A DNA stretch of 63,127 nt, counting the filler, from Lenisia limosa (lineage: Eukaryota > Protista > Breviatea), in the NCBI GenBank assembly GCA_001655205.1. It is 16 parts of 16 records of this genome, joined end to end, with 100 filler letters (N's around TTAATTAATTAA, not from the genome) between each part and the next. Parts side by side here need not be neighbours in the genome. Positions count along the whole stretch, not along the records: positions 1 to 19,667 come from LPNZ01005968.1; positions 19,768 to 23,049 come from LPNZ01009359.1; positions 23,150 to 26,222 come from LPNZ01005213.1; positions 26,323 to 27,671 come from LPNZ01002737.1; positions 27,772 to 29,942 come from LPNZ01011185.1; positions 30,043 to 35,293 come from LPNZ01001697.1; positions 35,394 to 37,138 come from LPNZ01000364.1; positions 37,239 to 40,531 come from LPNZ01005370.1; 8 more parts are not named here. The stretch is one strand, 5' to 3'. Below are positions 18,560-61,927 of this stretch, piece after piece. The first letter of the stretch is position 1; every line of letters begins with the position of its first letter. A program made the position numbers and the translations under genes. The notes under the pieces are model-generated. The model was not told the DNA's origin and did no database searches. It worked only from the letters and a program-made list of their open reading frames with translations.

Positions 18560-19550
18560 TCGACTGTGTAATCTCAGAGCAGACTGAGAACTGCGGCCTT
18601 GGCTTACCCTGTATTATCAATTCAGGCTCAGGTGAACATACAAGAACATATAGTAGATGTGATAGTACACAACATTTGATCATCATGAGCTTTACCATTA
18701 TACCACCAGATGAATATCGATAGATATTGAAATAGGATATTAATCCCCATTTATTCGGTTCGTAGTAGCTTTACGTCAATATTCATCAAAATTTCCTTCA
18801 TTTTACTCCCCCCCCCCCCCTTCNNNNNNNNNNNNNNNNNNNNNNNNNNNNNNNNNNNNNNNNNNNNNNNNNNNNNNNNNNNNNNNNNNNNNNNNNNNAT
18901 AGACTTGGCAGCGGCAGGGTAGAATTGATCATGGTGTTTGACGAAGGACCATCCATTGACATCAATAACTGCAAAGGACCCGTCCTGAGGGGGGTAAATT
19001 GGAAAATTTATGTCACAAAAACAAAAAAGCTGAAAACACACAAGGGTTGAAAATAACAAAACAAAGCACAGTCCAGTCGCTTCTGCGGCAACGCATCCCA
19101 TCAGTAAAATGAAGGAAATTCATGAAACAACAACACCTGATGAATTTTGGTGTAAAGGTTCTTAACCAAAAATGGACAAAAAAAAAGGGGGGGGGGGAGG
19201 ATTTGGATAAGAATATTGCTGTATCGGTACATCAGAACCGACTCGACAACAATACACACCTTTCGTCTCAGAAGGTCGAGTCCACACACCCATTGGTCAA
19301 AAACGCTCGCGGTTCTCACTGCTGCTTTCATTTCGTCTGAAAGGTCAAATGACGCAATGCCCGTATATTATATCTTTTCAACCAGACTTTTTAAGCAAAG
19401 CCCCAACAAAACACTTAGCAACCCCGTACCAGGCGTGAGTTTGATGGCGCTCCGGATTTCATGGTGGTTCTTGTCCCGCATCACAATGCCGTCAACGGTG
19501 GGGGGTCGCCGGGCCTCCGCATGTACCAGGTTTGGTCCGGCCACGTACAC
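18560..19550 (-). CDS. VIP1: VIP1/PPIP5K-type ATP-grasp inositol pyrophosphate kinase domain (5'-partial at contig end)
   Basis: Spliced: VYVAGPNLVHAEARRPPTVDGIVMRDKNHHEIRSAIKLT..AVRTASVFDQWVCGLDLLRRKDGSFAVIDVNGWSFVK, collinear with the PPIP5K signature VYTVGPDYAHAEARKSP..DG.V.RD..G.E.RY..CGFDLLR..CDVNGFSFVK. Confidence 0.85.
18985..19170 (-). repeat. Acceptor-forming repeat: family D (19170-19103) followed by family C (19102-18985) ending at the AG of a VIP1 intron
   Basis: Minus strand reads ..AATTTCCTTCATTTTACT-GATGGGATGCGTTGCCGCAGAAGCGACTGG...CATAAAATTTTCCAATTTACCCCCCTCAG|exon. Confidence 0.75.
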
Positions 19551-19667
19551 CTGTGGCGTGAGAGGAATATGTAAGTAATGTGCACTATTTGTGTAAACAC
19601 GATAGTTATATAGTACCCTCAGGCCTCCTTAACCGCTTAACCCAGCCCGATTCAACACACATGTCAC

Positions 19668-19768
19668 NNNNNNNNNNNNNNNNNNNNNNNNNNNNNNNNN
19701 NNNNNNNNNNNTTAATTAATTAANNNNNNNNNNNNNNNNNNNNNNNNNNNNNNNNNNNNNNNNNNNNT
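19668..19768. other. Artificial contig spacer N-TTAATTAATTAA-N (first of 15; others at 23094, 26268, 27716, 29987, 35338, 37183, 40576, 49709, 51065, 53925, 56014, 58147, 59618, 61828)
   Basis: Identical 12-mer with stops in all six frames, embedded in N runs; genes are truncated at these points. Confidence 0.97.
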
Positions 19769-19779
19769 TCCTTGGTTTA

Positions 19780-20452
19780 CCCCCCAGATTTGACGACATT
19801 CCGGTGACGTCATCGCCGCCGTCGCAAACGCAGCATAACGACAAGCTCTTCTGGAACGGAACGGAGATCATTGAAAAGGAGGATGCTGAGCTACTTCTGG
19901 ACCATGGGTGGGTGGGTAATAAATATGATAAATTTGTTTTTCTTTGAAGTCATGAAAGGCCTTCAAAAACCACATTGTACAATTAACCTTCAATGTACAC
20001 GAAGCCATATATTAACACCTTCCAACAACTAATTAATTATATATTTTTTTGTTTTTATTGTTTTCTTAAATTAAAAGCCTTCAAAAACCACTTCGTACAC
20101 ACTTTTATTAGTAATACCCTTCAACAACTATTTAATTGTATGATAATAAGAATATTATTTAGTGCAAAAGGATCTTCTCTTTTTGCTGATTGTTGTTTTT
20201 GAATCCATTAACCTCCTATTAATCTGTATAATACTTATTTATTTGCTCCTTTTAAAATGTGATACAAAAAAAAAGTGTTGCTTTTTTTTTGAATCTATCA
20301 ACCGCATTCAGTAACCACAATAAATTATGTTACCTTTTTTGATAAATGTCTTCCATTAACCCCTCCAGCAACGATGCCCAGCTGGAAATGGCCTCGGAAT
20401 TCGACTCGCTTGAAGGCGGCCTCGAAGATGACGTTCCCATTGACATCTCCTA
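19780..20452 (+). CDS. 3' end of an unidentified gene (two candidate exons)
   Basis: AG/GT-bounded open frames FDDIPVTSSPPSQTQHNDKLFWNGTEIIEKEDAELLLDH and NDAQLEMASEFDSLEGGLEDDVPIDIS*; no family recognised. Confidence 0.35.
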
Positions 20453-21474
20453 GTCGTCTATGGTCTTTTATTTAATTCAGATATCATTGGTGAATTGGAT
20501 TGTTTCTGACAAATTGATTCATGATATTTCATGAATGGCATACTATGCATATCCTAGTTTAGTAAATCTCCCCGTCGAAAAGAACTTGTTCTAAACATCT
20601 CCCAGCCTATATTTTGTTTCATGAGATCATGCGGGGGAAGTGAAGGTCACATGGAAAGCTCGGAGATGAGCGCTATTTTTTTTGCTTTTGCAGGCCGGGG
20701 CCCTCACGCCCAACCCTTCCCCTCTTAGATCATAATGATAAACGTAATTTGTGACATCTTATTATTTGGGAATTCTAAATATCTTTGAATAGAAAATTTC
20801 ATTGAGTTCCGTTTTCACACTTCCCAAATCGATGCGACGTAGTGATACGCCTTGTCATTGGTACGTACTGTTGTGTTTTTGTTAATCGTTTATAAATCAC
20901 TTGGAGAACCTTTCTTTGACGCAGGCAGCAACAAACCAAAGAGTTAAATTTAGACAAACTGTGACAAAACAGATACATCTTTGATAATCCGTCGACCATG
21001 ATGCTCCTAAAACGGTCATTGACACTTAATATACTGCAATGAGAAATTAAAACATTAGTTTGTACATATCTGACAGAAGCCGTCCGTACACACCAATCAT
21101 TTGCCTTAGAACTCTGTACACACAGTTTTTGCATGCCTCCCCCTAATAGGTATACCATACGCCACGAATAAACGGTTGTGACCCTGTCCCTCCCTTCAAT
21201 ATCACCGTTCTCTCATCAACCTGCTACTCTTCACCCCCCCCCCCCCCCCCCCNNNNNNNNNNNNNNNNNNNNNNNNNNNNNNNNNNNNNNNNNNNNNNNN
21301 NNNNNNNNNNNNNNNNNNNNNNNNNNNNNNNNNNNNNNNNNNNNNNNNNNNNNNNNNNNNNNCCATGGAATTTTATGGAAATTTGAAGTATTTATGGGAT
21401 TCTCAAATAATATAAGGGAATCCCAAATCGATGCGCGGTAGTAATGTATAATTCTCAGCGACCCCCTCTCCCAC

Positions 21475-21604
21475 CTAGTACACGTTGACGTTCTGGTTGT
21501 AAGCCTCGTATTGTTGATGACTCTGTTTGGTAACGGTCGGCTTGACTCTTCGCACCGCGGACTGGAAGTCGGCTACATTCACTGGTCTGGGGAGAAAAGG
21601 AGTT

Positions 21605-21640
<36 letters not shown>

Positions 21641-22929
21641 NNNNNNNNNNNNNNNNNNNNNNNNNNNNNNNNNNNNNNNNNNNNNNNNNNNNNNNNNNNN
21701 NNNNNNNNNNNNNNNNNNNNNNNNNNNNNNNNNNNNNNNNNNNNNNNNNNNNAAAAAAAGCCCAAAATCAATCTGTTGGCTGTCATTGCGTAATACAAGA
21801 GAATAGGAGTTTACATTGAGGAGTCACCAAAAATCAAGATATCGCAAGGCTTCTCCCAGGCCCAGAAAATGACCGAATGTCTCGATTTCGATAGTTTAGC
21901 TACTGACCGGGATAAAAATCCAGACATCCATGTCAGGACTTATCCCTGGGTTATACACTGTCCACGATAAGTCCTGATATGACAGAAGAAAAAGCCCGAT
22001 AGTCTTATCATGACTTTTATCGTTATTTCGTACCAGAGCGAGGCCTCCTAATATCACCTTGGATTCACTTCAGTAAAAAACCCCAGAATTTGTCGAAAAA
22101 TACTCAAAAACTATTGATATTTTCCTGTTTTCTTCTGTGCAACACAATACCTACCTGATCTGATCGGGTCGTGCTGTAGCCACGCCCGCTCCCAGGGCTC
22201 TGATAGGGGCAATTGCTGCCTCCTTACACACTAGCGTCAAGTCTGCGCAGGAATATGTCTGTGGGGGGGGGGGGAGGAATAAAATTGGAAAATTTATGAA
22301 ACAAAAAAAAAAACCAAATCAAATCTGTTGTTGCCTGACAACACACAAGGGTTGATAACAACAAAACACACAAAGACCAGGTCAATCGCTTCTGCGGCAC
22401 AGCATCCCATCGGGGAGGGGGAAGGATGATGACATAGGTTCTTAAGGAAGTTCAGACACCCACGTTTGTCAGTTTAGCGACCTTGGTGATATCGGACGAC
22501 GGGAGTTGAATACCACTGTATTGTAAAAATGGCAAAGTTGATGAAACAAGTAAAAAAAAAGAAGTCCATATTCAAATCTGTTGGCAAGCAAAACACGAAG
22601 GTTGAAAGTGGAACGAAGGAAATTTCAATGGAGAATATTGGTGATCACGAACCAAGAACTACATCAATCAAATCAATTAATCAAAAAAAGACAAATATTA
22701 CCCTGTGGGTGAAAATGGAAAATTTATGAAACAAAACAAAAAAACACCCACAGCATCAAGTAGAAATCAAACCCCCAAAATCAACTCGTTAACTCATATA
22801 CATCACTTGTATTTTCGAACCGAAGTGAAGCCCTTGAGACAAGAATGTAAAGTCAACCCCATACTTCTTCCGCATTGTCTTTTCAACAAGGTGGAATCGA
22901 GCCTCTTCATCAGGGAGAGGAATGTAAAC
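21475..22929 (-). CDS. AAA+ ATPase C-terminus, spastin/fidgetin/katanin clade (5'-partial)
   Basis: VYIPLPDEEARFHLV / KVAKLTNTYSCADLTLVCKEAAIAPIR / PVNVADFQSAVRRVKPTV..YEAYN..*. Confidence 0.85.
22259..22411 (-). repeat. Full-length family C copy ending at the AG of an AAA ATPase intron
   Basis: GATGGGATGCTGTGCCGCAGAAGCGATTG...GTTGTTATCAACCCTTGTGTGTTGTCAGGCAAC...TTTCATAAATTTTCCAATTTTATTCCTCCCCCCCCCCCACAG|exon. Confidence 0.8.
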
Positions 22930-23285
22930 CTGTATCTCAGTAAGAAGCTTGTCATCATCTTGCTCCAAATAAAGCAGTCAAATAACAACAACAACAACTG
23001 CAGCACCGTCCTCTCTCAATAAAACATTCAAAAAAAAAAAAAAAAAAAANNNNNNNNNNNNNNNNNNNNNNNNNNNNNNNNNNNNNNNNNNNNTTAATTA
23101 ATTAANNNNNNNNNNNNNNNNNNNNNNNNNNNNNNNNNNNNNNNNNNNNGGGGGGGGGTAGAAATACTCTTCATGGGGTGTGATGGGTAAGATAAGAAGG
23201 TAGAATTGCGGACATAGTGCTGAAGGTGTCAGAACTTACCTTGCCCTGTTGATTTAATAAATTTTCCATTTTTGTACGCTGGAGT

Positions 23286-23451
23286 AATGGGATGCGGTGC
23301 TTCAGAAGCGACTGGCCTCGGCTTTTGTTTATTTTGTTGTTCTCAACCCTCGTGTTGCCAGCCAATAGAATTGATTTGGGCTTTTTTTTTTCTCATAAAG
23401 TCTTCATTTTATCTCTCCACCCCAAAGAGATATTCTCACCCCCCCCCCCAG
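23286..23451 (+). repeat. Family C copy at acceptor in SK-like gene
   Basis: ATGGGATGCGGTGCTTCAGAAGCGACTGG...CAACCCTCGTGTTGCCAGCCAATAGAATTGATTTGGGC...CCCCCCCCCCCAG|. Confidence 0.75.
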
Positions 23452-26339: not shown

Positions 26340-27545
26340 GCGTACACTGGAGGTATATCTGAGGTTGCTCTTGAGTACAGTGCTGGAGCAAAGGCATATT
26401 TCAACGAGGTTGGGTGGGTTACCAGGTACTTACTATAAACTATTGTTGGACGTTGCAGCCACTCCGGTTTTTCCATCACATTAACTTTTTAAAACATCAT
26501 CTTGAACTCACCCTTCCCCCCATGTGTGGTATCAGCAATCAGAGTTGATTTTTGGGCTTTTTGTTTTATAAATTTTCCTTCGTTTTATGAGTGGAGTTGA
26601 TTTTGGGCTTTTTCCAATTTTACAAAAATTTCCTTCGTTTTACCCCCCCCCCCCCNNNNNNNNNNNNNNNNNNNNNNNNNNNNNNNNNNNNNNNNNNNNN
26701 NNNNNNNNNNNNNNNNNNNNNNNNNNNNNNNNNNNNNNNNNNNNNNNNNNNNNNNNNNNNNNNNNNNNNNNNNNNNNNNNNNNNNNNNNNNNNNNNNNNN
26801 NNNNNNNNNNNNNNNNNNNNAAAGCGGCGATCAAACTAATACTGGCGGACTGCAGGTTTGCGTGAAGTGAGGTGATGGATTTTTTTGTAGTTGAAACGAA
26901 GATTATAAAGATCCGTCGGTTATCTCTACACAAAAACACCATAATAAAGAGCTGGAGGTGTAATAGATGATTGGTAAGGTGGAGCAATGATGATGATTAT
27001 TATTGTTACTGTGTTGGAGTGATTTACAACAAACCTGCTCCCTAGTGTTGGTTGTGGTTTGAAACCACTTTTATTAATATTATAACCCCCCATCACCCAC
27101 CGCGACTGGCTTGGGCTTTTTGTTTGTTATTATTAACCCTCGTGTGTTGTCAGCCTACAGAGTTGATTCTGGGCTCCCTCCCCCCCATAAATTTTCCAAT
27201 TTTAAATCCATTAGGACCATTTCCTCAACGAATTGGAGAACGCCTTTGTCATCTTCAATGTACATGGGTCTTCAATTACTGCTAAAGTTGGAGGGGGGAC
27301 GAGGTACTCCAATAATAGCTTAGTATCTTTACGCCAATATTCTTCATCGAAATTTTCTTCGTTTACCCCTGCTTCCCCCAACATTCTTGTTTAAACATAC
27401 TTACGCCAGGTACTTGAACACGAACACGAGGACTCCGAAGACGTCCACCTTATCCAGCTTCCCTCCGACGCCTGTTCTTGTCCTGTGTGCGACAGTCACA
27501 ATTCGATCTTTGATCTTGGCACCCCGCTGGAGTACGAATTTGAAG
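26340..27545 (+). CDS. Internal exons of an unidentified gene
   Basis: AG/GT-bounded frames AYTGGISEVALEYSAGAKAYFNE, DHFLNELENAFVIFN, VLEHEHEDSEDVHLIQLPSDACSCPVCDSHNSIFDLGTPLEYEFE. Confidence 0.4.
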
Positions 27546-28768
27546 TAGGGGAGGGGAGAATTGTATTTGTAACGTTCTTCATCGAAATTTTCTTCGTTGA
27601 CGGTGTGATAGTGCGGTGCCTCAGAAGCGACTGGGTTTTGTTTGCTTTGTTGTTATCAATCCTCGTGTGTTNNNNNNNNNNNNNNNNNNNNNNNNNNNNN
27701 NNNNNNNNNNNNNNNTTAATTAATTAANNNNNNNNNNNNNNNNNNNNNNNNNNNNNNNNNNNNNNNNNNNNGCGAGACCCAAATGCGGCTCGGAGGCGCT
27801 GCTAAGGCTGTGACAAGGTGGGAGGGAGGTGAGATATAAAAAAGTTGATTTTGGGCTTTTCTTCTTCTTCGTCTTCGTCTTCGTCTTCTTGCGCACAAAT
27901 TTCCTATCTTCCTTCTATGTGATCTTTTTTCATAAATATTCCAATCCCCTCCCCCAGAGCCACGGATGACTTAGTTGAAGCCGCTCGTCAAGCCGCAGTT
28001 ATGGACGCGGGTGGAGAGNNNNNNNNNNNNNNNNNNNNNNNNNNNNNNNNNNNNNNNNNNNNNNNNNNNNNNNNNNNNNNNNNNNNNNNNNNNNNNNNNN
28101 NNNNNNNNNNNNNNNNNNNNNNNNNNNNNNNNNNNNNNNNNNNNNNNNNNNNNNNNNNNNNNNNNNNNCAAGAATTCAAGTCAACGCATCACAGTGATGT
28201 ATTCCATGCTCTGGAATCTGGAATAGTCTTGACCGATTTTCTATATGGTTTCCCAATGATAATCGGACAAGATTTATTCCGGTCACTGTAGCTGTACATG
28301 TTTTAGAACCTTGGCCTTGCGATGATGATAGATATGTATGACGCTGAAACCTAAAACATTCCCTATTTTTGTTTTGTTAGTATCAACCATTTTGTGTTGT
28401 CAGCAAATTTTGTTTCATAAATATCCTTCATTTTACCCCCCCCCCCCCCNNNNNNNNNNNNNNNNNNNNNNNNNNNNNNNNNNNNNNNNNNNNNNNNNNN
28501 NNNNNNNNNNNNNNNNNNNNNNNNNNNNNNNNNNNNNNNNNNNNNNNNNNNNNNNNNNNNNNNNNNNNNNNNNNNNNNNNNNNNNNNNNNNNNNNNNNNN
28601 NNNNNNNNNNNNNNNNNNNNNNNNNNTACTTTTGTGTTTTTGTTTGTGGGGGGATTTCATATTTCTTGTGGTCAACCAACATGCTTATCATTCGAAACCT
28701 CCACCATCGGCCTTAAATTCACTCCGCCCATATGCCTTCGTGTTATTCAATATTTAAGAAGCGTGATG

Positions 28769-33650: not shown

Positions 33651-33673
33651 TATGTGGTGTTTTAATGTAGTTA

Positions 33674-37489: not shown

Positions 37490-39950
37490 CCTTTTCTTTC
37501 TCACTTGAGGTAATTTCGGAAACTTCAGACTTTAAAACATCTAAACAATCAGAATTATACTGTGACATCTCAGGATATATTTGGTCGCGACTCAATTCAA
37601 ACCCCAAAAAGCCGAGCTTTATACTCATTCCCCCAAGCTGTTTGCCCTTCAAACTTTCCTGTTCTTCTTGTTGATGAAGTTTCTCCTTCTGAAGTTTATA
37701 AACGATTAAAACAAAACAAGCTGTGGACAAAAGGTAATAATAGTATGCCAGATACAACCTTGTTCTTATTTCTCACTGATAGTAAAATTTCACTCAATCA
37801 TTTTTCATTTGCCTTATTTTGTGCACACGTAATATGCAGCAAAATAAGAAACACAATTCCCCCACCTCTTCTTCTATTCGTTGTTCCTCCATCTGACGGT
37901 CCAATTCGGCCTGTTCAGCGGCCTTCTCTTTTGCCCTCTCCCGTCCAGGCCAGACAGGACCTGTTGGTGATGAACACAGGAGTATATCATATAATTTACT
38001 ACGTCTAGAGACGAGAAACACAGCTAGTAGTATCTGGCCAAAGAAGTCTACATCATCATGATTAGTATACTTCCATTGAGATAATATATTAACATATGAT
38101 ATGATATAGAAATGTGAAATTTTAACCTGCTTATTGAAATAGCAGATGAAAGAAGGACTGTTGATTAGTGATAGGACAGCTTAAAAAAGGAGAGGAAAGG
38201 GAAAACGTAATTCTACATCTTCCTTTCAATCTGTATTATTTAACTTCAATTCTTCTATTAATATCAGGATTTATCGAGAAATTCAGACTTTTTCGAACCG
38301 AAGTGAAGCCCTTATTGCAACCCATTAATATCCCATAACCCCCCCCCCTCTTTCGTATAACTCNNNNNNNNNNNNNNNNNNNNNNNNNNNNNNNNNNNNN
38401 NNNNNNNNNNNNNNNNNNNNNNNNNNNNNNNNNNNNNNNNNNNNNNNNNNNNNNNNNNNNNNNNNNNNNNNNNNNNNNNNNNNNNNNNNNNNNNNNNNNN
38501 NNNNNNNNNNNNNNNNNNNNNNNNNNNNNNNNNNNNNNNCAACAGGTAAAAGAGTATCAGAAACTGTTGATCCTAGTTTCAATAGAGACTTTACTGGAAT
38601 AACAAGAATGTGTTTCGTTGTTCTAAAGCTAGGTGGAGAAAACAGGCAATCCCCACCCACCGCCAAAACAGTTTTATCCGAGACAACAATCTCCTCCCTC
38701 CGGGATTCCTTTGGGGTCCGGGCCGGTTTAAGGCCTCGCCGCGTGCTTTTCCCGTCCTTTTTCGCTTGTTTCTCCTTGGGATCCTTTCTCAAGGGCTTGT
38801 CGGGGGCGGCGGTCGCGGGTTTATCGACNNNNNNNNNNNNNNNNNNNNNNNNNNNNNNNNNNNNNNNNNNNNNNNNNNNNNNNNNNNNNNNNNNNNNNNN
38901 NNNNNNNNNNNNNNNNNNNNNNNNNNNNNNNNNNNNNNNNNNNNNNNNNNNNNNNNNNNNNNNNNNNNNNNNNNNNNNNNNNNNNNNNNNNNNNCAAATA
39001 AAGCGCCAGTCGCTCCCATCACTCCAGCGGTAAAATTGGAAAATTAATGAAGCTGCCCTCCCCCCCATGAATCATCTGTGTTGGCTCCGCATTTGAAAAA
39101 CAGTCGCAGGTGGGAAATGTCACCGAATTGTGAAGGTATGATGTATTTCTATAGCATATATAGCTTCCATAGTATATATATGCCCATACCACGGTGCTTC
39201 CTCTTATAACTAGGGTGTCACTTCGGTACGAAAAAGACCGGTAAAATATCGATAGTTTTCGAGGATTTATCGAGATTTTCAGTCTTAAGCCCTACGTATA
39301 ACTACCCATGTTTACCTTGATATTCAATAGTTGAAGCAGATATACAGTGACCTGGATAAGTCTTGACCGATTTTCCTTGGGAAATCATGGTAAATTGGTC
39401 AAGACTTATCCCAGCCACGTATTTTAAACTTACCCCGTCATACCTTTTTTTCAGGCTCGGATACCTCAACGGATTTCTCGAAGATCCTGGGGTTGCGTAC
39501 ACCCCATGAAGAGCCTTCAGGAAGGGCTGGCTTCTCCGCCTTGGTCGTGATTTTGGTTAAGTAACACATACATGTACATGCATACAACATAAAATTTGAT
39601 GCATTATCATTATATGATGCAGAAGAAATAAAATAAAAATAAAAATAAAAAAACAACGTAGTATCTGGCAGAAGCAAATGCATATCGTATATTAGTACGC
39701 CAACCGATTGGGTTTCGGTTTCAGTTGCTGCGGGATCTTTTTGGATCTTCTTGCTCTTCATCTTCTCTTCCTTTCTCTTCTCTTCCTTTCGCTCTTCCCT
39801 CTTCCTTTTCTCCTCACGTTTTCTCTTCTCGTTCGCCCGTCTTAGCTCTTGCTCCTCCCTCTTCATCTGGTCGATTCTCCTTGCCTCCTCCTTCTTACGG
39901 GTGATTTCAGCTTGTTTTGCTTCCTCACGTTTGCTCTCAACCTTATAAGT
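37490..39950 (-). CDS. Lys/Glu/Arg-rich coiled-coil protein of unknown function (partial)
   Basis: Several exons with charged low-complexity frames (KREEQELRRANEKRKREE; DKPLRKDPKEKQAKK; RERAKEKAAEQAELDRQMEEQRIEEE) bounded by splice sites. Confidence 0.55.
39345..39419. mobile_element. MITE family B copy
   Basis: ta|CAGTGACCtGGATAAGTCTTGACCGATTT...TTGGTCAAGACTTATCCCAGCCAC. Confidence 0.8.
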
Positions 39951-39974: not shown

Positions 39975-40233
39975 GGGCTTCCCTACAGTCCCAAAAAAGA
40001 CCGAATTTTTCGATAAATCCTCGATAAATATCGATATTTAAACGGTCTTTTTCGGACCGCAGCGAAGGTCTACCCCATTTTACAACATGACAATCTCCTA
40101 CCCCTCCTTCTCACCCCCTCCCCTCTTCACTATAATTTGAGCTTCACTTCGGTTCGAAAAAAGACTGAATTTCTCGATAAATCTTCGAAAACTATCGATA
40201 CTTTACCAGATTTTTTGAACCGAAGTGGAGCCC
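39975..40233. mobile_element. Two adjacent family A copies (A2 subtype 39975-40070, A1 subtype 40139-40233)
   Basis: A2 TIR GGGCTTCCCTACaGTCC; A1 TIR GCTTCACTTCGGTTCG; shared core GACTGAATTTCTCGATAAATC.TCGA.AA.TATCGATA. Confidence 0.8.
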
Positions 40234-40389
40234 TAACTATAACCCCCCCCCCCAACCTTGGCATTTGCTGCCATTCTCTTCTGACNNNNNNNNNNNNNNN
40301 NNNNNNNNNNNNNNNNNNNNNNNNNNNNNNNNNCATTCACTTGCGGCGGCTGATAGGAGTCAGTAATGGAGGAGATTAGGTATTAAGAG

Positions 40390-48346: not shown

Positions 48347-49553
48347 ATGAATACAATGGAATCCGGTGAGATTGTGCTCTTCCGAGTAGACGGGATGACT
48401 TGCCAAGGATGTGTCAAGAAGATCACAAATGGTAGGCTCCTTGGAATAAGTGAGTTTATTCTTGCTACCATGTTCTGCGCAGTTATTTATTTGCATACAG
48501 TTTTGATATTCCCCGTTTTCTTTATTGTTTGCCGGGAATTTCATATTCAATGATATGTTGGCGTCATCATATGTTATTTGCTGACGGACTGGACTGTTTT
48601 TTTCTTCATCTCTCTCTCTATTTTCTTCATTAATATGGAATATTTCATTATAGTTTTCCTATTTTGCTAATATTATTACGATTTCAATTGTGTCACTTAG
48701 TGTTACCTGTTGTTTATTCTAGTTAGTAGTATAGGAAATCTTGAAGTACATTACTTGCTGAATTATCACCTTCATACCACATACATATGATATATTGCAA
48801 GTTTGGTGGGAGAGTTTTATTGAGAAATATTGTACATTCAGATTGTTATTACATGCAGCCATCAACGGTGTGGAAGGAGCCGAGGCGATAGAGGTCAACA
48901 AAGACACGTCATGCGCCACCGTACGTCTGCAGCCGGGGGTGTGTGGCTCCCTCGTGATACAGGCGGTTGTTGATGCCGGTAAAGCCGCTGCCAAGTGGAC
49001 GGACCAGGATGAACTGGGTGCTCAAACTGAAGGTGTGGAAGGTTGGTGGTGGTCTCAGACTGGGGAAATGCTCTTTTACAGTTTTTTTTTAATGATTCAC
49101 ATGTTAATGTGTGTGTATCAATATTGCATTACAGCAGGCAATTGTGTTCACATTTTTAAACTACAGGTTTTGTATTCAAGCATTTTCTGTTTAATCTTTT
49201 TCCAGCAGCCAGCCCCCGGGAGGCGAGAGAAGTCAAGTTCCGTGTTGATGGGATGACCTGCATGGGCTGTGTGAAGAAAGTCACTGATGGTATGATGATT
49301 AGAAATGAGATAGTATAATCATTTCTCTCTTATGATCACTAGTTGAACAACATTTTTAAATTAATCCAACCCAATGCAGCCATCAACGATGTGGAAGGAG
49401 CCGAGGCGATAGAGGTCAACAAAGACACGTCATGCGCCACCGTACGTCTGCAGCCGGGGGTGTGTGGCTCCCTCGTGATACAGGCGGTTGTTGATGCCGG
49501 TAAAGCCGCTGCCAAGTGGACGGACCAGGATGAACTGGGTGCTCAAACTGAAG
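48347..49553 (+). CDS. Tandem heavy-metal-associated (HMA) domain protein: copper chaperone or N-terminus of a P1B ATPase (3'-partial)
   Basis: Two metal-binding motifs FRVDGMTCQGCVKKI and FRVDGMTCMGCVKKV, each followed by an exon AIN(G/D)VEGAEAIEVNKDTSCATV..VVDAG. Confidence 0.85.
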
Positions 49554-49789
49554 GTGTGGAAGGTTGGTGGTGGTCTCAGACTGGGGAAATGCTCTTTTAC
49601 AGTTTTTTTTTTTAATGATTCACATGTTAATGTGTGTGTATCAATATTGCATTACAGCAGGCAANNNNNNNNNNNNNNNNNNNNNNNNNNNNNNNNNNNN
49701 NNNNNNNNTTAATTAATTAANNNNNNNNNNNNNNNNNNNNNNNNNNNNNNNNNNNNNNNNNNNNACATGCAAAATTAAAATCTAAACCT

Positions 49790-51313: not shown

Positions 51314-53316
51314 ACATCCGAAGCGCCCACCACAGACTCCCGAGCTGCCATTTTGGCTCAGGCAATCTCTTCAAAAGACAAGAACCTTCTCGGTATGCCT
51401 GGACCTCCTTGAGGACTATGCAATTAATTGGAGAATTAATTTTGAATTTTGAACTGGGACATAATTACATGGTACATTTATAAAATTTCCCTTTACTCCC
51501 CCAGAATACTGCCTGCACATCAAGGACCCTATTGTCATCGCACAATCCGTGAAGGGCCTCGAGCCCAAGCTTGCAAATATGCTTCTTTCTGTGGGCTGTG
51601 GAAGGTTGTATGGAAAAGCATCGACCGCTGAAAAATAATTAAAAAGGCGCAAGACTTTACACATGCCCCCCATGCCCCACAGTATTATCTGATAATATCA
51701 CAATTGTGTTTCCCAAGATTTTGTTTTATGTTTGTCGATATATACTAATCAACCCTCCGTGTGTTGTCAGCCAACAGAGTTGATTTAGTTTNNNNNNNNN
51801 NNNNNNNNNNNNNNNNNNNNNNNNNNNNNNNNNNNNNNNNNNNNNNNNNNNNNNNNNNNNNNNNNNNNNNNNNNNNNNNNNNNNNNNNNNNNNNNNNNNN
51901 NNNNNNNNNNNNNNNNNNNNNNNNNNNNNNNACCTTCTAGTTCCCTGGATGCGGGCGATTATCACCATCCACGCTCCGAGCCTCATGACGTATCCCGACA
52001 CAGCCCGTCGACTCAGCCATTTGTCCGAGGTTATTGAGGCTCGCCTGTCGTCGCATAAGAACTTAACTAAGCTCAGCGGCCGCATGGACCTTCTCATGAG
52101 CCAGGTAGGGGGTTTGAACACATGCATAAATGGCATACAGTGATCGGGCTAAGTCTTGACCGATTTGCTCTGTGATTCACAAGGAAAATCGGTCAAGACT
52201 TTTCCTGGTTTCTGTATATGTTGGCGTAATTATTGCACCCCTCGATTTTTTTTTTTTTTTTTNNNNNNNNNNNNNNNNNNNNNNNNNNNNNNNNNNNNNN
52301 NNNNNNNNNNNNNNNNNNNNNNNNNNNNNNNNNNNNNNNNNNNNNNNNNNNNNNNNNNNNNNNNNNNNNNNNNNNGAGCAGGAAGCGCCAGAGAAACGCT
52401 GAAAGAGGTGAGGAGGGGGCTGGCTTTTGTAATGGAGCTTCACTTTCTGTTTCAAATTCTCAATAAATCAGGGAAAATATCGATATTATACACGTCTTTT
52501 GGAACCAAATTGAACAGGGATTTGTCTTATGTCTGACCCAAAATAGCCCAGGCAAAGAAGGCACGTAAAGAGTCTGAGTCTGACAGCGAGGAGGATGAAG
52601 GTATGATGATTATATTGTAATGGGGATGACAATGATGAACGTTTATTAGGATGATGAAGTTGTGGAATGATATTGGTTTTGTGGTAGTATATACAATATG
52701 AGGATGATAAGAAAGATATTTATCGAAAGTGAATCCCTAAATAGCACAATCCAGAGATGTTACATTCTTTTGCATTCCCTTTGCTTGGATTCTCACACCT
52801 TCAGATTTGGACCCTGACCAATGGGTAGATGATGAGGAGGGTAAGAGGGGGGGGGGNNNNNNNNNNNNNNNNNNNNNNNNNNNNNNNNNNNNNNNNNNNN
52901 NNNNNNNNNNNNNNNNNNNNNNNNNNNNNNNNNNNNNNNNNNNNNNNNNNNNNNNNNNNNNNNNNNNNNNNNNNNNNNNNNNNNNNNNNNNNNNNNNNNN
53001 NNNNNNNNNNNNNNNNNNNNNNNNNNNNNNNNNNNNNNNNNNNNNNNNNNNNNNNNNNNNNNNNNNNNNNNNNNNNNNNNNNNNNNNNNNNNCTGACGAG
53101 CAGGGTCTTGAAATGGACAGTGAGGATGAGGAGGAAGAAGGAGAAGAAGGAGAGGAGGAGGAAGATGCTGAAGTGGATGCCGAGTCAGAGGAATCGGAAG
53201 AAAGTGAGCAATCGGGCAGCGAATCGGAAGAAGAAGCACCAAAAAAGAAGGAAGAGGTTGAGGAAGAAGAGGAGAGTGATAGTGATGAGGAGGAGGAAGA
53301 GGAAGAGGCAGAGTAG
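51314..53316 (+). CDS. WDR43: U3 snoRNP protein UTP5/WDR43, Utp12 domain and acidic tail (5'-partial)
   Basis: SRAAILAQAISSKDKNLLEYCL..IAQSVKGL / WMRAIITIHAPSLMTYPD..LSEVIEARLSSHKNLTKLSGRMDLLMSQ followed by a long Glu/Asp tail, as in WDR43. Confidence 0.85.
52138..52214. mobile_element. MITE family B copy in UTP5 intron
   Basis: ta|CAGTGAtCGGGcTAAGTCTTGACCGATTT...AATCGGTCAAGACTTTTCCTGGTTtCTG|ta. Confidence 0.8.
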
Positions 53317-53980: not shown

Positions 53981-55949
53981 ATACTTCTCCGGGTCTTGTA
54001 CTCCTGGACCACCTTCTTGATATTGTCAACGAAGCCATCCTAGAGAAGTGTGAGGATTAACAATGACTGCCTTTATAGCCGACGATCGTTTTACGTTGGA
54101 GAGTTTTTTGAAATATGAAAGAATATTACAACTCCATATCATATCATGTTATTGTAAACCTGCCTATCATCCCATATGAGAAGTGTTTCACGTCGGTTCG
54201 AAAAAAGACTGAATTTCTTGATAAATCATCGAAAACTATCGATATTTACCTTTTCGAACCAAAGCCCTACATATGAGCCAAAGAGGAATGATCCACTCAT
54301 AATAACAAAGAAGAAAGTGCCAGGACCAGGGTGCTTACGGGGTACTTCCACTCGATAATCTCTGATGTAGCTTCAGACATTTCAATGTTCAGGTTGAGCT
54401 GGGGGGGNNNNNNNNNNNNNNNNNNNNNNNNNNNNNNNNNNNNNNNNNNNNNNNNNNNNNNNNNNNNNNNNNNNNNNNNNNNNNNNNNNNNNNNNNNNNN
54501 NNNNNNNNNNNNNNNNATCATATCCTTAAACAGGAACCCTAGTCCAAGAGTACCTGGAGCAAGTCGAGGTCCTTTGCTGACAGGTGGCGGTTCAAGGCAG
54601 CCTAAAATCGTAAACCCAGTCTTTAGTACCCTTCTTCGTTTATATTCCACATTACCTCTCGTTCAACAAATACAAAGAAAATATATTTCATGAGCAAGCA
54701 ATGCAGGAATGAAGGCAAGTCCCAGCCCAATCCCTTTCTACCTGTGCGGCACTGATGTTCTTAAGAGTCCCATCGGAGAGACATGTACTGATGGCCTGGG
54801 GGGAGGGGGGGAGTAAACGAAGGAGATTTCAATGAAAAATATTGGCGTGAAGGTACTAATCACGAACCCAAAAGATGAAAAAGCGAATTACCTGAAACAC
54901 CGAGGCAAAAAAAAAGAACAGAAAGGATCATACATAACGCCAAAAACTGAATTGAGGTAGTTCTTCTCACCTGCATAGTTTCGTTGAGAGTGTGAAGGTT
55001 CTGTTCAACAGCCACCAAGTAACGGGCTGAGGGAGGGCTCACCATCATCTGAAAGGGGTGACCAGGTAATAGGTAGGGATGGGGAGGGGCGGAGTAAAAA
55101 TTTATGAAACTCTGTTGGCTGACAACACATGAGGGTCGATAACAACANNNNNNNNNNNNNNNNNNNNNNNNNNNNNNNNNNNNNNNNNNNNNNNNNNNNN
55201 NNNNNNNNNNNNNNNNNNNNNNNNNNNNNNNNNNNNNNNNNNNNNNNNNNNNNNNNNNNNNNNNNAAAATGCCCAATAACCCCCCACTTCGACAGCGATT
55301 GAAGCGAGGTCCTGCACGTGGATAGTAGGCAGCAGGTTCTCACCCTTGCCAACGACAGCTAGCGGAAGGTTGGTTGAAGTCCATGCAGACTGTAACGTAA
55401 GTGTTTCCCCAAGAAAGTTCTGAAGAGGAGAATCATCAAGTTCTTTTGTCATATAAAGAGAATCTGGTTGGAAGAAAACTAAATATCTTGCAAGTACCTC
55501 TTCGGACCATGGAACAATAAACTAAAAGCAGCCCATCCCACCTTGAAGTAATGATGAAAAAGTTCTTCTCCAAGGCCATATGTAATGCCCCCAGCACAGA
55601 TTCGGGTTTTCTGACCCATGCCCTTACCCCCAGCCTTCATGGCGAGCTACATTGTGTTAATAATGTAATCTCGTCAAGTCATGTACTTTCCTATGTAAAT
55701 AATTTTGATGCTAGTAGACCAACTAATTCGTTATTTAAAACCAATTCTTCCGAATATTGTTGGTCCTAACTAGGGCTTCCCTACGGTCCCAAATAAGACT
55801 GAATTTCTCCGATAAATTCTCGATAAATATCGATATTTAGTCTTTTTCGAACCGTAGTGAAGCCCTAGTCCCAACAGACCAACATCCCCAGTCCACCTTC
55901 TCGACCTGGATGAGCTCCTTGAAATGGGGGTGCGTACAGCGGCGTTTGA
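53981..55949 (-). CDS. AK7: Adenylate kinase 7 (axonemal), N-terminal part, truncated at both contig ends
   Basis: LSEEDFKRRCTHPHFKELIQVEK / ICAGGITYGLGEELFHHYFKSAW..LAVVGKGENLLPTIHVQDLA / YLVAVEQNLHTL / GFVDNIKKVVQEYK. Confidence 0.85.
54797..54868 (-). repeat. Family D copy ending at the AG of an AK7 intron
   Basis: TTCGTGATTAGTACCTTCACGCCAATATTTTTCATTGAAATCTCCTTCGTTTACTCCCCCCCTCCCCCCAG|exon. Confidence 0.75.
55773..55865. mobile_element. MITE-like family A copy (A1/A2 hybrid ends) in AK7 intron
   Basis: ta|GGGCTTCCCTACGGTCC...GAACCGTAGTGAAGCCC|ta. Confidence 0.85.
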
Positions 55950-56176: not shown

Positions 56177-57420
56177 ATAGACTCAGCAATGACGGCGTTG
56201 ACGGGTTCATTTCCATGGAGGCTACGATCGAATCTAACTTGATTGTTTCAACTGCCTCATCTCCAATCTTGTGGGAGGGGGGAGTAAAACGAAGGAAAGT
56301 TCGATGAAGAATATTGGCGTAAAGGTGCTAATCACGAACCGAAGAATCTGAAACTCCAAACAAACAAAAACAAAAAAACAAGCAATAACAAATATGAGCA
56401 ACCAACGCTAAAACTAGACAAAAGCCAGATGACAAAAAACACAAACACAAAAACAAGCCCGCGCCACGCCAGCCTTTGAAATAGTCCCACCACCGCTCGA
56501 TCACCCAAACGTGTAAACATGGAAAACTTATGAAACAAAAAAGTACCAGTTACATATAGGGAGAGCTAGAGACACCTTTCTATACCTTCCCATTCCTCTT
56601 CCCTTGGGCTTCACTTCGGTTCAAAAAAAAAGACTGAATTTCTCAATAGATCCTCGAAAATTATCGATATTTTAACGGTCTTTTTCGAACCGAAGTGAAG
56701 CACTAACCATTTCCATTCTCCCTTTCACCCCCTCTTCTACTTCCCTCTCCCCAGCTTACAGCAAAGTTGAAGAGATACAGGCAAGGCTCTGCCGTGGCTA
56801 TTGCAACAAAAGACGAAGAATAGGGCGATAAGGCAAGAGCCGTGATGGGTTGTTGGTTAAGACCTTCGATGGTGTAGATGGGATGGGACTGGGGGGGGGG
56901 GGGGNNNNNNNNNNNNNNNNNNNNNNNNNNNNNNNNNNNNNNNNNNNNNNNNNNNNNNNNNNNNNNNNNNNNNNNNNNNNNNNNNNNNNNNNNNNNNNNN
57001 NNNNNNNNNNTGTTGGTTGACAACACACGAGGGTTGAAAACAACAAAACAAATATCCAATTACACAACCCAGAGTGAACGCGTAAAAGTGAATCAGTTTT
57101 ACCTCAAAGCTATAAAGAAACTTTTTGCTTCTAAAACGCAGGTAATTAACTGACTCCGTGTTATTAATTGGGAAATTAATTTTGAATTTTGCCATATTGT
57201 AGATAGAACCCCTTCAGACAATTTTTAAATTACAATTTTATCCAATAATTGCTTCAATATATACTGTAACAGGGATAAGTCTTGACCGATTTCCTTAAAG
57301 ATATCCCAAGAAAAGTCACTGTGCACGTGGTCCTACAATTAACACAAGACCGGAACACCTACCTCAAGAGTGTGGAAAAATGCTGCGTTACCATCGTTGT
57401 CAGCAGCAACAAATATGGTC
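56177..57420 (-). CDS. WD40-repeat protein fragment, possibly dynein-2 intermediate chain (WDR34-like)
   Basis: TIFVAADNDGNAAFFHTLESHPIYTIEGLNQQPITALALSPYSSSFVAIATAEPCLYLFNF has WD-repeat spacing; subfamily is a guess. Confidence 0.5.
56272..56340 (-). repeat. Family D copy at acceptor in WD40 gene
   Basis: TTCGTGATTAGCACCTTTACGCCAATATTCTTCATCGAACTTTCCTTCGTTTTACTCCCCCCTCCCACAAG|exon. Confidence 0.75.
56606..56703. mobile_element. MITE-like family A copy in WD40 gene intron
   Basis: GGGCTTCACTTCGGTTC...GAACCGAAGTGAAGCaC|ta. Confidence 0.8.
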
Positions 57421-57507: not shown

Positions 57508-57575
57508 CAACATGCATCCAAGATAAACTTCAACATGCATCCAGGATAAACTTCAACACGCATCCAGGATGAACA
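57508..57575. repeat. 23-bp tandem repeat x3
   Basis: CAACATGCATCCA(A/G)GATAAACTT. Confidence 0.8.
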
Positions 57576-58559
57576 TCGACAGAGATCGAGGAGTTATCGA
57601 AAAATCCAGTCTTTTTCTGAGAGAAACGAAACATAATACGTTACCCTTTGTGTAACAGTTCACAAGTATACCTCATCCAGAAGAAAAGGAGCAACATGCA
57701 AGGAAGAAATGGCTTCTCTACCTCACACCGATGCCCAATCCCCCTCCCCTGTCACACAAAATATAATAACATACATAGCCCTCTCCTCTCGTACTGTGCA
57801 CATGCTACTGAGGAATTGAACAAGTGGACGCGAGAAACAAGAGCCTCTTCCATTGCATCTATAATAACAGCTAAATTGTCAGGATTGATGTTAAATCGAT
57901 AATAACAGCTAATAGTGTTAATTAAATCTATTATCACAGCTAAATTGTATTGCTAAAATTGATAGTTTTTGAATCTTTTGGCTAAATTATCATGATTGGT
58001 ATTGAACAGAATAATACACAGCAAAATTATCAGGATTTGTGTTGAATCTATAATCACGGCTAAATTGCCATGATTTGTGTTATGGCATTGAATATATAAT
58101 AACAGCTAAATTGTCATGATTNNNNNNNNNNNNNNNNNNNNNNNNNNNNNNNNNNNNNNNNNNNNTTAATTAATTAANNNNNNNNNNNNNNNNNNNNNNN
58201 NNNNNNNNNNNNNNNNNNNNNAGAATTAGGGCTTTTGTTCGGTTCAGGAAAATATCGATAGTTTTCGACTTATCGAGGCAAGTTTTTTTCGAACCGAAGT
58301 GAAGCCCTTGGTAGAATGAACAAAACAAAACAAAACAAAAACCAGCGTGCAGGAAAAAGACCTTGAGATTCCCATTTAGGTCACAAAACAAAAACCAGAT
58401 CTGCTACGTGCAGGAAAAAGACCTTGAGATTCCCATTTAGGTCAACCCCCCCCCCCCCCNNNNNNNNNNNNNNNNNNNNNNNNNNNNNNNNNNNNNNNNN
58501 NNNNNNNNNNNNNNNNNNNNNNNNNNNNNNNNNNNNNNNNNNNNNNNNNNNNNNNNNAA

Positions 58560-59572
58560 CGTTAGTCTCGAGCTTGTGGAACTGCTTGTCGCTGTGGTAT
58601 GAGAGGAAAAAGGATAAGAGTGAAGGTGTGAGAGGAAAAAGGATAAGAATGAAGGTGTGGTGAAGGTGTGAGGGGATGTGCCAACTGCGGAGAGTGAAGT
58701 ATGTAGTAAAATTAGATGTAAAGTAAATGTATGGCAAAAGTAGGTAAAACATAGGGAAAACTTGAAACAATGAGAAGTCTCATACCACCACTTGCTGTTC
58801 TGGTGCGCCAACCCCGCATACACCACAATATTACCCTGCTGATTGGGCGTGCGGATAGCCTTCTCCTTGCCTGATAAGATGGTGCAGATTACAGCGTTGG
58901 CAGCCTCGGCATTTTCCTCATTGAGAAGGGGGAGTTGCTGAAGGAGGTCAGAAATGTGCGTGGTAATAGGGGCCTCATTCTTGTTCAAAGATATGATACG
59001 CCTATACGGTCCGAAAAAGACCGTCAAAATCTCTATATTTATCGAGGTTTTATCGACAAATTCAGTCTTTTTTGGGAGTCAGAAAAGTGTGTGATGTTTA
59101 TTTGTTTCCCTATGCTATTTAATGACTACATATTGTGATATTATTATTGCTCTAGATTTATGGTACCCTATGATATTTTTGATAACAAGATACCATTTCA
59201 CTTAAAAGCAGCTTACTCGGGTCTTGAGGGCCTTTTGAAGGACAGAAGTCAACTTCTGGTCCAGGCTCTGATAAGGGTAACAAAAGCTACAGTATCGATA
59301 TAATGATAAAGGTTAATAAAATTAAATATGATTGAGCAAAAAAAAAAAGGATGATTGAGATTAAAGACTTGGGTAAGGCTCAAATCAAGGTAAACAATCA
59401 TGGAGATGATTGAGATGAAAGACTTGGGTTAATTAATTAATTAAGGTAAACAATCATGGAGATGATATGGAAATAAAAGTAAACAATCGTAGCCCCACGC
59501 TAAATCTGTCGATGTTTTTGACGACACGAAGGGTACGCAGGATGCCTTCCATGATCTTCACAACAAGTGGAG
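58560..59572 (-). CDS. Internal exons of an unidentified helical protein
   Basis: SPLVVKIMEGILRTLRVVKNIDRFS / SLDQKLTSVLQKALKTR / DLLQQLPLLNEENAEAANAVICTILSGKEKAIR. Confidence 0.45.
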
Positions 59573-59688
59573 ANNNNNNNNNNNNNNNNNNNNNNNNNNN
59601 NNNNNNNNNNNNNNNNNTTAATTAATTAANNNNNNNNNNNNNNNNNNNNNNNNNNNNNNNNNNNNNNNNNNNNCCCCCCCCCCCGCAG

Positions 59689-61713
59689 CCCCCCACACAG
59701 GCCCCTCCTATTTGGGCGAAAACGTTTCCCTGGCTGAAGTTGAAATGATGCTCCGTAAGGTTGCTAATGCGTTGCTGCTTGAAGCGAAGGTGGGGGCATA
59801 TCATGACGTAATACTGATACAAGCTGGTACAAGCCCTAAATTACTGCTGAATCCCAAACATTCTGCTTGTATCTCAGCCCTCGTAATAATGAGGTCCCCT
59901 TGTATTAATTGATTCAATATATTCCTCAACTCCCTTTATAATGGTTTAAACCGTGATTAGTACCACCTTCACGCCAACATTCTTCTCTTTGTTTTACTCC
60001 CCCTTAGGCTGCCAATGACAACAGCGAAAAGGAGGCTGCAGTGGTTTTCCATAGAGAAGTGAAAGGGATCGAACATACTCAGATGCTTACATTAGCTACA
60101 CATATGGCAGTTCAATTACATTAGCTACATTACTCACATCTGGCAGTTCAAGAAGACGAAGGCGCTGGTGGAGGAAATCGAGGGTATTCTAAAGAAGCAC
60201 CCCCATGCTCGAGCAAAGTTGGTTATGTTATATGATAGTCATTAGATAGTATACCTACGAACCCAAAAAAAAGACTGTATCTCTCGATAAATCCTCGATA
60301 AATATCGATATTTTACCGTCTTTTCAGACCGTAGGGAAGCCGTGTTCATACATATGATATGTAATCATACTTTATATTGTATCATACTAAGTCCCAACAC
60401 GATTGACTCAAGATAAATCTCATCGTCCGTTTCGAGACTTTTTGCGGTCAGTGTACATGCACATAAACTGTGATTGAGGGCACTTCCCTCTTAGTAAAGT
60501 TGTTTTCTGGATTGTGGAAGCGACTGGTCTCGGCTTTGTTTGTTTTGTTTTTATCAGCTTTCGTGTGTTTTCAACCAAGAGAGTTTATTTCGTTTCATAA
60601 TTTAACTCCCGCCTTACGGTTTAGCACGAAAGCTGCCGAAGTGAAACATGAAATTCCGCTTATCCTAAGGCATATTGCTGAAAACGAGGTCAAAATAACC
60701 CTTGTCAAGGCCAAGCATCTCAGGAACTGTGGGGTGAACATATTATGACTTAGCTTGATTGAACGTTTCATTGTCAATTTGGCTTTTTGATATTTCAACA
60801 ATCAGCATCACCACCACCCAACATGATATTAACAATAACCCACAGCACTTAATAAATGATATTAACCCCCGTACGCTGAAGTGATAGGATGCGGTGCTGT
60901 AGAAGCGACTGGCCTGGCCTTTGTTTGTTTTGTTGTTGTGTGCTGTCGGCCAACGGAGTTGATTTTGGGTTTTTTTGTTTTATAAATTGTCCGATTTTAC
61001 CCCCCCCCCCCCNNNNNNNNNNNNNNNNNNNNNNNNNNNNNNNNNNNNNNNNNNNNNNNNNNNNNNNNNNNNNNNNNNNNNNNNNNNNNNNNNNNNNNNN
61101 NNNNNNNNNNNNNNNNNNNNNNNNNACAGAGCCGCAAACTGGCGCCACCGCCACCTTCAAATCAGGCGACCAGGGTGGGTAACCGGGCGGTATTAGGGGG
61201 GGGGGGTAATTATACGGTTTTACTTCTGTTCGAAAATAGACTGATTTCTCGAGGAATCCACTGTAAATATCGATATTTTAGCAGGTCTTTCTGGGACTAC
61301 TGGGGGTACCTGTTGGGTGGTTGCATTATGCCCTGTCTTATTACCGCAGATATTAATGACGAAATCACGGTCAAGGCTGAGCGAAAGAAGAGCCTTGCCA
61401 GAGTGCTAGAGAAGAAGGTGGGATAAGAATAGAATTCAGAAAAATGATTATTCCCTGCGGTCCCGAAAAAGACTGAATATCTCGATAAATCCTCGATAAC
61501 AAGTCGGATATATCTCCGATCTTTTTTTGACCGTAGGGAAGGCCTAATTGTTAAAGATAAAAAAGCCCCATCAAATATCATATCACGCCCTAGGCTCTGA
61601 AGATCGAAATGATGAAACCTGGCGGATTCCTGCGGTCCGCGGCCGTAATGGCCACTGCGGAGGTCAAGCTCCTACCCTTGTTACGCCAAATGACACTCGA
61701 GGCCAACGCCGAC
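59689..61713 (+). CDS. CC2D1/Lgd-like protein, helical region and C2 domain (partial)
   Basis: ITVKAERKKSLARVLEKKALKIEMMKPGGFLRSAAVMATAEVKLLPL matches the CC2D1 C2 pattern F...I.R..R.F.R.IQ.KGIKFE..HKGG.F..D..LGTA..KL..L. Confidence 0.7.
60882..61012 (+). repeat. Family C copy at acceptor in CC2D1-like gene
   Basis: GATAGGATGCGGTGCTGTAGAAGCGACTGG...GCCAACGGAGTTGATTTTGGG...ATAAATTGTCCGATTTTACCCCCCCCCCCC, then N gap and exon. Confidence 0.75.
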
Positions 61714-61927
61714 GTAAGCTCTGGGAGGGGGGTGAGGGGGGGTTAGCCACTCAATAGCCCCAAATATATGGGTATACGTGGGGNNNNNNNNNNNNNNNNN
61801 NNNNNNNNNNNNNNNNNNNNNNNNNNNTTAATTAATTAANNNNNNNNNNNNNNNNNNNNNNNNNNNNNNNNNNNNNNNNNNNNGCTTTTTTGTTTCATAA
61901 ATTTTCGAAATTTACCCCCCCCCCCAG

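Follow-up and report, generated by a model that had tools for sequence, protein, structure and literature searches.

Repeat families C and D at the acceptors and putative branch points of introns in the protist Lenisia limosa

How can dispersed repeats come to form the 3′ ends of many unrelated introns? This question is raised by a window of 63,127 nt from the Lenisia limosa assembly GCA_001655205.1, the whole stretch of DNA analysed here, which consists of 16 joined parts of this intron-rich protist genome (40% GC, 5019 N). In the first-pass annotation, two repeat families, C and D, were proposed to be either introners, which created these introns and then decayed at their 5′ ends, or elements that target existing acceptors and bring their own branch point and C-rich tract. 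The observations described below argue for secondary, targeted insertion into existing introns, with takeover of the branch point by the TTTAC–poly-C end of the element, a reading that is considered rather probable.

The common end of C and D at intron acceptors

C (about 140 nt) and D (about 80 nt) do share one terminus, as first annotated: about 25 nt at the 3′ end, TTTAC followed by poly-C. Profile hidden Markov models (HMMs) were trained on 15 C and 9 D segments of the window, and these training copies match by construction. Clear copies score between 9 and 128 bits, against 5.2 (C) and 6.4 (D) for the best of 10 shuffles, which establishes both as real repeat families. Identity to the consensus is 84–95% for near-full C copies and 87–95% for D copies. 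By self-BLAST, 21 segments fall into the C/D set, separate from the palindromic families A, B and E, which resemble miniature inverted-repeat transposable elements (MITEs), and from the asymmetric family F. Grouped by hand, the C/D copies occupy 25 sites in the window.

C was also detected by a motif scan in contigs binned within a bacterial genome record (G001), from which 63 contigs were fetched as a held-out set. At a cut-off of at least 8 bits, the HMM search gave 13 matches in 7 contigs. Twelve of them are C/D copies in six eukaryotic-looking contigs (L006–L009, L033 and L040), with the same pattern as the window copies; the thirteenth, of 25 nt in a bacterial contig, was taken as false. 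L006 is likely to come from the same or a close species, because it bears families A, B, E and F too. These six contigs, as well as L043 and L054, combine protist repeats with a low coding density and represent contamination of the bacterial bin. Pattern scans gave no C/D match in viral contigs and two matches of 28 nt in metagenome contigs, which were rejected since they had no C body.

A single study contains the window sequence, as contigs, both in a DNA run (X1) and in a poly-A RNA run (X2). The Sec61-alpha exon of the window has a EukProt transcript match at 100%, against 65% for the next relative. DNA-run depth in bin 18369–19024 is 1554, compared with about 36 elsewhere, a value that is not a copy number and that shows the presence of many other copies. 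The depth in family A and B bins ranges from 1032 to 7784.

The orientation bias first described is confirmed, 23 of the 25 sites being sense to the host gene (p=2e-5), and 10 of the 12 whose strand is fixed by Pfam, PDB or RNA (p=0.04). Exactly two sites are antisense (9072..9169 and 18751..18822), as had been stated. As regards position, an AG is visible and adjacent at 12 of the 17 sense coordinates previously listed (18985, 22259, 22516, 23451, 27214, 27409, 54796, 56268, 56889, 60007, 60624 and 61927). For the copy at 55080, 45 nt separate the element from the first AG (55049), and at 26656, 28449, 51791 and 61012 the acceptor is indeed hidden by N. Further copies were found at 6379, 13723, 19104, 21753, 22612, 22709, 27575/27605, 27925, 39030 and 56513. 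The proposed distance of about 40 nt from the AG turned out to be too loose, because MITEs of family A in short introns satisfy it as well (they end 32–52 nt from the AG in five of seven introns checked). The discriminating position is an element end inside the last 20 nt or so before the AG. C-runs that follow a C/D end lead directly to an AG in 7 of 8 cases in the window and in 6 of 10 held-out cases; for other C-runs, the figures are 30 of 120 and 14 of 75, respectively.

What normally stands in this position was examined in 46 curated introns devoid of C/D, 16 of them defined by RNA and 30 by homology or frame. In 36 of them, a YTNAY motif occurs between −16 and −6, most often at position −9 or −10 (shuffle mean 17, maximum 30). 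According to established U2 intron biology, a YTNAY in that position is a likely branch point, and the host motif near the AG is thus likely to have this function. The shared TTTAC–C end of C and D fits the same motif. It occupies the branch-point slot in 17 of the 23 copies that are last in their stack and have a visible AG (hand-classified: 10/14 in the window, 7/9 held-out), when random tolerated insertion predicts 5–12%. The probability of such a count is 1e-6 at an assumed rate of 25%, and 1e-3 at an assumed 40%. In addition, a C-run of at least four precedes the AG in 11 of 15 C/D introns versus 7 of 46 others, so that C/D seem to have changed the appearance of the acceptors; poly-C as a general intron ending in this organism was rejected on the same count of non-C/D introns.

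The proposal that the elements aim at acceptors already in place, to which they would bring their own branch point and C-tract, is thus supported by the slot and C-run counts. Supply of the AG by the element is not shown, because the letters between the element end and the AG vary by site. Moreover, a host-like branch motif and an AG survive downstream of the element at 23451, 27409 and 55049, which is the intact downstream acceptor that the first-pass annotation had named as evidence against its proposal. The AG probably belongs to the host.

The final C-run, strand-fixed and junction counts exclude two N-containing introns, one of them 61714–61927, which spans a gap inside which RNA places another exon, and use two corrected donors. 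The 61927 copy is kept in the copy and branch-slot counts, and its donor stays among the 18 donors compared below.

The 25 sites are as follows.
6379..6443, plus strand: 3′ portion of C, ending in poly-C, within the first intron of the peptidase S10 gene; the AG is hidden
9072..9169, minus strand: antisense stack, C terminus then C head without 3′ half, peptidase S10 intron 9034–9210
13710..13790, minus strand: D; 11 nt separate its end from a protein kinase exon acceptor
18751..18822, plus strand: antisense D in the last VIP1 intron; the C-run faces the donor side, donor hidden in gap 18824–18898
18985..19168, minus strand: D and near-full C, stacked, ending at the acceptor of a Vip1/PPIP5K exon
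21753..21785, minus strand: C fragment, truncated by N gap; the host retains an intact branch motif and AG further downstream (21587)
22259..22411, minus strand: near-full C at the end of FIGNL1-like intron 22463–22259; remaining host part about 53 nt, ending in a C-run
22516..22739, minus strand: stack of C terminus (unused-looking AG), D and 5′-truncated C, FIGNL1-like intron 22864–22516
23253..23451, plus strand: stack of C terminus and full-length C with GTACGC head, then host-like CTCAC-C10-AG
26519..26655, plus strand: two 5′-truncated C with D-type ends, after host CTCAC and C-run; AG hidden
26856..27214, plus strand: possible whole-C intron; C positions 35–139 end at AG, with about 220 unrelated nt behind a frame-deduced donor resembling the C head
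27321..27409, plus strand: D; host-like CTTAC and AG 43 nt downstream
27575..27671, plus strand: stack of D end and C head, cut by scaffold gap
27838..27957, plus strand: decayed C 3′ part broken by a microsatellite, ending at AG
28363..28449, plus strand: 5′-truncated C with poly-C end; AG hidden
38995..39086, minus strand: stack of C terminus and C head, cut by N gap
51748..51791, plus strand: middle of C, truncated at N gap, with an exon of the Utp12 family downstream
54796..54880, minus strand: D ending at the AG of intron 54970–54796
55049..55147, minus strand: 3′ portion of C, followed by a host-like motif and then by the first AG, 45 nt past the element
56268..56542, minus strand: C terminus (56513–56542) and full D (56284–56355), intron 56759–56268
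56889..57052, minus strand: C middle part, N gap, then C14 run and AG
59952..60007, plus strand: D at the end of intron 59790–60007; AG used (RNA joint, depth 2.3, one contig)
60517..60624, plus strand: C at the end of intron 60218–60624; AG used (RNA joint, depth 17.4)
60871..61012, plus strand: full-length C with donor-like GTACGC head and TTTAC–poly-C end, inside an intron with donor 60729; AG in N gap
61886..61927, plus strand: C terminus, C-run and candidate acceptor AG, after scaffold gap

The sites are clumped, being dense at 18–28.5 kb and 51–62 kb, with one site in about 22 kb (29500–51700) and none in the 13 short introns of the Sec61-alpha and dehydrogenase genes (2593–5665). Worn C/D-like ends below the HMM threshold are seen at acceptors 8440–8472, 20340–20368 and 51480–51504, and C/D may thus have shaped more acceptors than counted.

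As for the host genes, the VIP1 (Vip1/PPIP5K) label and the UTP5 label (Utp12-family) are supported, and the AAA gene is fidgetin-like-1-like (FIGNL1-like), not the spastin of the earlier annotation. Exon pieces gave no Pfam support for the SK, AK7, WD40 and CC2D1 labels; Atlas leads for the AK7-labelled exon are epimerase-like, all below 0.9. The held-out L007 exon matches GalNAc kinase weakly (E=1.3). No own spliced protein was found for two C/D genes, and the search with the FIGNL1-like exon returned three relatives only and not its own spliced protein.

Two side observations concern intron ends. G-rich intron starts pair better with their own C-rich end than with those of others (by permutation of duplex energies, p=0.006 for 56 curated introns, p=0.008 for the 46 without C/D, and p=0.014 when permuting inside genes); a crude table of G-runs by C-runs is not significant (p=0.16). 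This pairing may form an end-closing stem. Inside two C/D introns, at 22704 and 54890 (minus strand), an AG is followed, at once or one base on, by a donor-like GTAAT, in frames that fit skipping; these are candidates for a relic acceptor or a recursive splice site.

Other repeats and duplications were encountered. Family A (24 segments) lies inside short introns, for example 13076–13188 and 40131–40242. Segments 48853–49141 and 49374–49664 form a near-identical 290-nt tandem duplicate of an exon and intron start, either a recent duplication or an assembly artefact. In L009, a 232-nt piece of a gene occurs twice in inverted orientation, at 1–232 and 6214–6445, the two copies being 99% complementary.

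Host introns and their donors

RNA contigs on 59674–61783 provide six joints. As predicted in the first-pass annotation, the AG next to a C/D copy is used in both cases where it is visible there, after D (60007) and after C (60624), and the host intron is cleanly removed in all three C/D introns covered. The third one carries the full-length C at 60871: RNA joins 60728 to 61126 (the gap conceals 35 exon letters) from the outer host donor 60729, not from the inner GT of the element at 60871. RNA leaving 61713 does not go on at 61928. None of the 15 joints listed out of 117 lies at a C/D acceptor. Elsewhere, joining at the adjacent AGs keeps seven gene pieces in frame, and the spliced FIGNL1-like model can be aligned to a relative (P0122) across both C-bearing joints, with one 2-residue gap.

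Did C and D create these introns? For most sites, the idea of an introner that later decayed is unsupported. Seventeen of the 18 host donors are unlike the element head, with scores of at most 2.5 for C when real heads reach 23–25 (compared with other introns, p=0.14 and 0.73). The full-length C copies, which contain a donor-like head, TTTAC and a C-run, all have their head (3/3) within a host intron, behind a C-run or an older C/D end. These three heads start exactly at GTAYG, as the top 3 of 9749 GT sites, and full-length C is thus shaped like an excised intron; GTACG and GTATG begin 10 of the 46 host introns. Target-site duplication, which the annotation had suggested looking for, does not exceed chance (flank permutation p=0.31, 27 copies), nor was exon-junction duplication found, the repeats being 0–4 nt long in 10 introns (mean 1.7 nt, versus 2.0 in controls). 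When repeats are subtracted from nine introns, the host part is 52–81 nt in three, which matches the 66-nt median of repeat-free introns, longer in four, and shorter in the two weighed below.

It may still be argued that C and D entered exons as whole introns, that their unique 5′ parts are either older copies in decay or insertions of later date, and that new copies stacked on old ones. C does have the shape of a whole intron; the head-like donor of intron 26856–27214 stands at a CAG|G junction, and this intron may be a whole C judging from its sequence; the relic-looking ends in some “non-C/D” introns (8472, 20368) mean that many acceptors may be old element ends. The donors, the internal position of intact heads, the skipping of the inner GT in RNA and the short junction repeats all speak against such an origin. 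Besides, fungal introner-like elements (ILEs) reportedly shorten while decaying (PMC3609843), whereas C/D introns exceed the length of the element. This scenario is therefore judged unlikely, and C and D are likely not introners at most sites.

How C and D may spread

Among 30 C copies with both ends visible, 20 retain the 3′ end only and 2 the 5′ end only (p=1e-4). Ten of the 45 visible 5′ junctions adjoin another C/D end, and one more junction of this end–C-run–head type is provided by an RNA contig from another locus (loose end at 60887). Of the remaining 35, seven follow a C-rich tract, compared with 3.1% of control intron positions (p=1e-4). Stack partners are mutually closest ends in none of nine pairs and differ as much as random ends, so the stacks look like separate events in which the same spot was struck more than once. 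In two held-out copies (L008 and L009:3168), the C-run has no AG next to it, and a G-run on the donor side borders the antisense D at 18751. Altogether, the copies seem to be guided by their poly-C end: the C-run would come first and the acceptor second, acceptors being the target most often tolerated.

Copying by rolling circle from a single lariat or circular template was considered as a general source of the stacks and rejected, since the junctions differ and the partners are not closest ends. Junction 23273/23274 fits lariat read-through, as a single lead.

In the mechanism proposed, C and D would insert into the C-rich acceptor region of introns already having their own donor, where the TTTAC–poly-C end would become the new branch point and pyrimidine tract. 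An intron-shaped C RNA would be copied by a reverse transcriptase supplied from elsewhere, the copying being primed where the poly-C end pairs with a genomic G-run. Such priming would explain the fixed 3′ ends, the ragged 5′ ends, the single orientation to C-runs and the repeat strikes on older ends. Selection has surely shaped the surviving copies too. Within the reading of targeted insertion, a moving unit consisting of a whole-intron-shaped RNA (GTACGC to TTTAC-Cn) is given slightly less than an even chance.

The same distribution could in principle arise at the DNA level, if breaks at G/C runs were repaired or converted with another poly-C-ended intron end as template, a few ends spreading by homology and without RNA or retro-enzyme. 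The lack of target duplication and of a partner enzyme, the stacking on older ends and the C bodies with D-type ends at 26519, 26594 and 28363 would all fit. However, copying of free length should sometimes overrun, whereas the shared sequence halts sharply at GTAYG in all three full-length copies and self-BLAST reveals no dispersed upstream flanks, which makes this alternative improbable as well.

Least convincing, and quite unlikely, is random insertion of ordinary short elements followed by selection that left only copies harmless at the acceptor: an antisense end would read as a G-run and GTAAAA, a strong false donor, a mid-intron sense copy would be a false acceptor, host introns are so short that family A ends near the AG too, and selection rather than targeting is held to shape transposable element (TE) positions near exons in mammals (PMC3088655), but that selection depletes TEs near exons, whereas C/D ends are enriched in the most constrained slot, the asymmetric control family F (11 window matches) is divided between the plus (6) and minus (5) strands and has a single end close to a branch-like motif and AG, and both stacking and C-rich 5′ flanks are left unexplained. 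Because mammalian TEs are depleted near exons, the enrichment of C/D at acceptors is unusual.

Several points weigh against targeted insertion with branch-point takeover. The branch motif is kept about equally in inner (9/13) and last copies (21/27; p=0.7; 22 once a last copy misplaced by a base is corrected), and selection on the motif is therefore not demonstrated. RNA covers only three C/D introns, from one gene and one run, and one joint has a depth of 2.3. Among the 35 unstacked copies, 28 have no C-rich 5′ flank. The truncated end of the antisense stack 9072..9169 lies 31 nt from the donor G-run, a weak link because this copy lost its end. The host part is only 19–22 nt in two of the nine introns. 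The donor at 26856 resembles the C head, ranking 5 of 9749 GT sites, when 0.01–0.02 such donors are expected among 18, a post hoc figure for a donor deduced from the frame. No partner enzyme was found: a small part of the genome was searchable, and G001 gave only two reverse transcriptase matches, of which the one examined is of the bacterial group II intron type, without a C/D end. Lastly, the tests on C and D gave no Pol III boxes, unusual fold or target-site duplication.

A bolder version of targeted insertion, in which excised spliceosomal introns have become mobile RNAs, C and D, that home into acceptors by poly-C pairing, rewrite the branch point and pyrimidine tract genome-wide and occasionally give a whole new exon-borne intron (26856–27214), is tentative and on the doubtful side.

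Relation to known systems

C and D behave, most likely, like a 3′-anchored retroposon giving a branch point and a pyrimidine tract to existing introns. With short interspersed elements (SINEs) and other retroposons not bounded by long terminal repeats (non-LTR), they share a 3′ end that is fixed and bears a homopolymer tail, truncation on the 5′ side, the use of one 3′ end by two bodies and a contribution to 3′ splice signals. They differ in that the tail is poly-C rather than poly-A, no Pol III A/B box was found by pattern in either family and target duplications are missing. Their secondary structure is no stabler than that of 200 shuffles (z +1.3 for C, −0.35 for D), and the searches gave no tRNA and seven weak Rfam matches, none overlapping C/D, hence no match to an intronic snoRNA or structured RNA. 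Antisense Alu is known as a donor of pyrimidine tracts, and SIRE of Trypanosoma cruzi as a donor of trans-splice acceptors. This role of SIRE is not stated in the available portion of PMC4006747. SINE-type elements are occasionally exonised, whereas C and D form constitutive acceptors of many cis-introns.

Introners are defined by similarity to both intron boundaries, secondary insertions into existing introns being filtered out (Gozashti et al. 2025, PMC12130899); they are mostly non-autonomous, and some derive from non-LTR elements. Like C and D, they are repeated non-coding families tied to the splice signals of unrelated genes. In contrast, introners are spliced from exons and match across the whole intron, whereas most C/D donors (17/18) are unlike the element head. 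An introner scan would discard C and D because it filters similarity due to secondary insertion. Introners with terminal inverted repeats, as well as MITEs, are set apart by the absence from the C and D consensus of terminal inverted repeats (short internal palindromes only) and of target-site duplications.

Fungal ILEs (PMC3609843, PMC10996645) resemble C and D in being shorter than 200 nt, intron-shaped and devoid of transposon hallmarks, with a proposed RNA route; their constant sense orientation is counted as a likeness to the strong sense bias seen here. They are whole new introns with stable folds, and the RNA-based movement proposed in these reports concerns whole new introns, whereas C folds no better than shuffles and sits in host acceptors. 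Stwintrons (PMC12403724) likewise have an intron-like unit nested in the splice element of another intron and form families without target duplications. They need two successive splicings, whereas C/D RNA is joined in one step from the outer donor and most copies have no donor. On the features tested, C and D are outside TIR-type introners, classical SINEs and stwintrons, and only partly like fungal ILEs. No description of a repeat family at the acceptors of existing cis-introns was found in the literature searched, most subscription papers and supplements being beyond its reach.

Repeats are usually kept out of the interval between branch point and AG, and C and D concentrate there, with about one site per 2.3 kb of window. 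If confirmed, this would be a mobile element that rewrites the 3′ splice signals of existing introns without intron gain, acceptors being its safe landing site. Because the unit possesses both ends of an intron, and hundreds of its junctions would be readable genome-wide, the movement of introns through RNA would also become amenable to a tractable test. The mobile-intron version, if true, would link RNA intron transposition with the wholesale rewriting of 3′ splice signals, in a class of elements that introner scans filter out.

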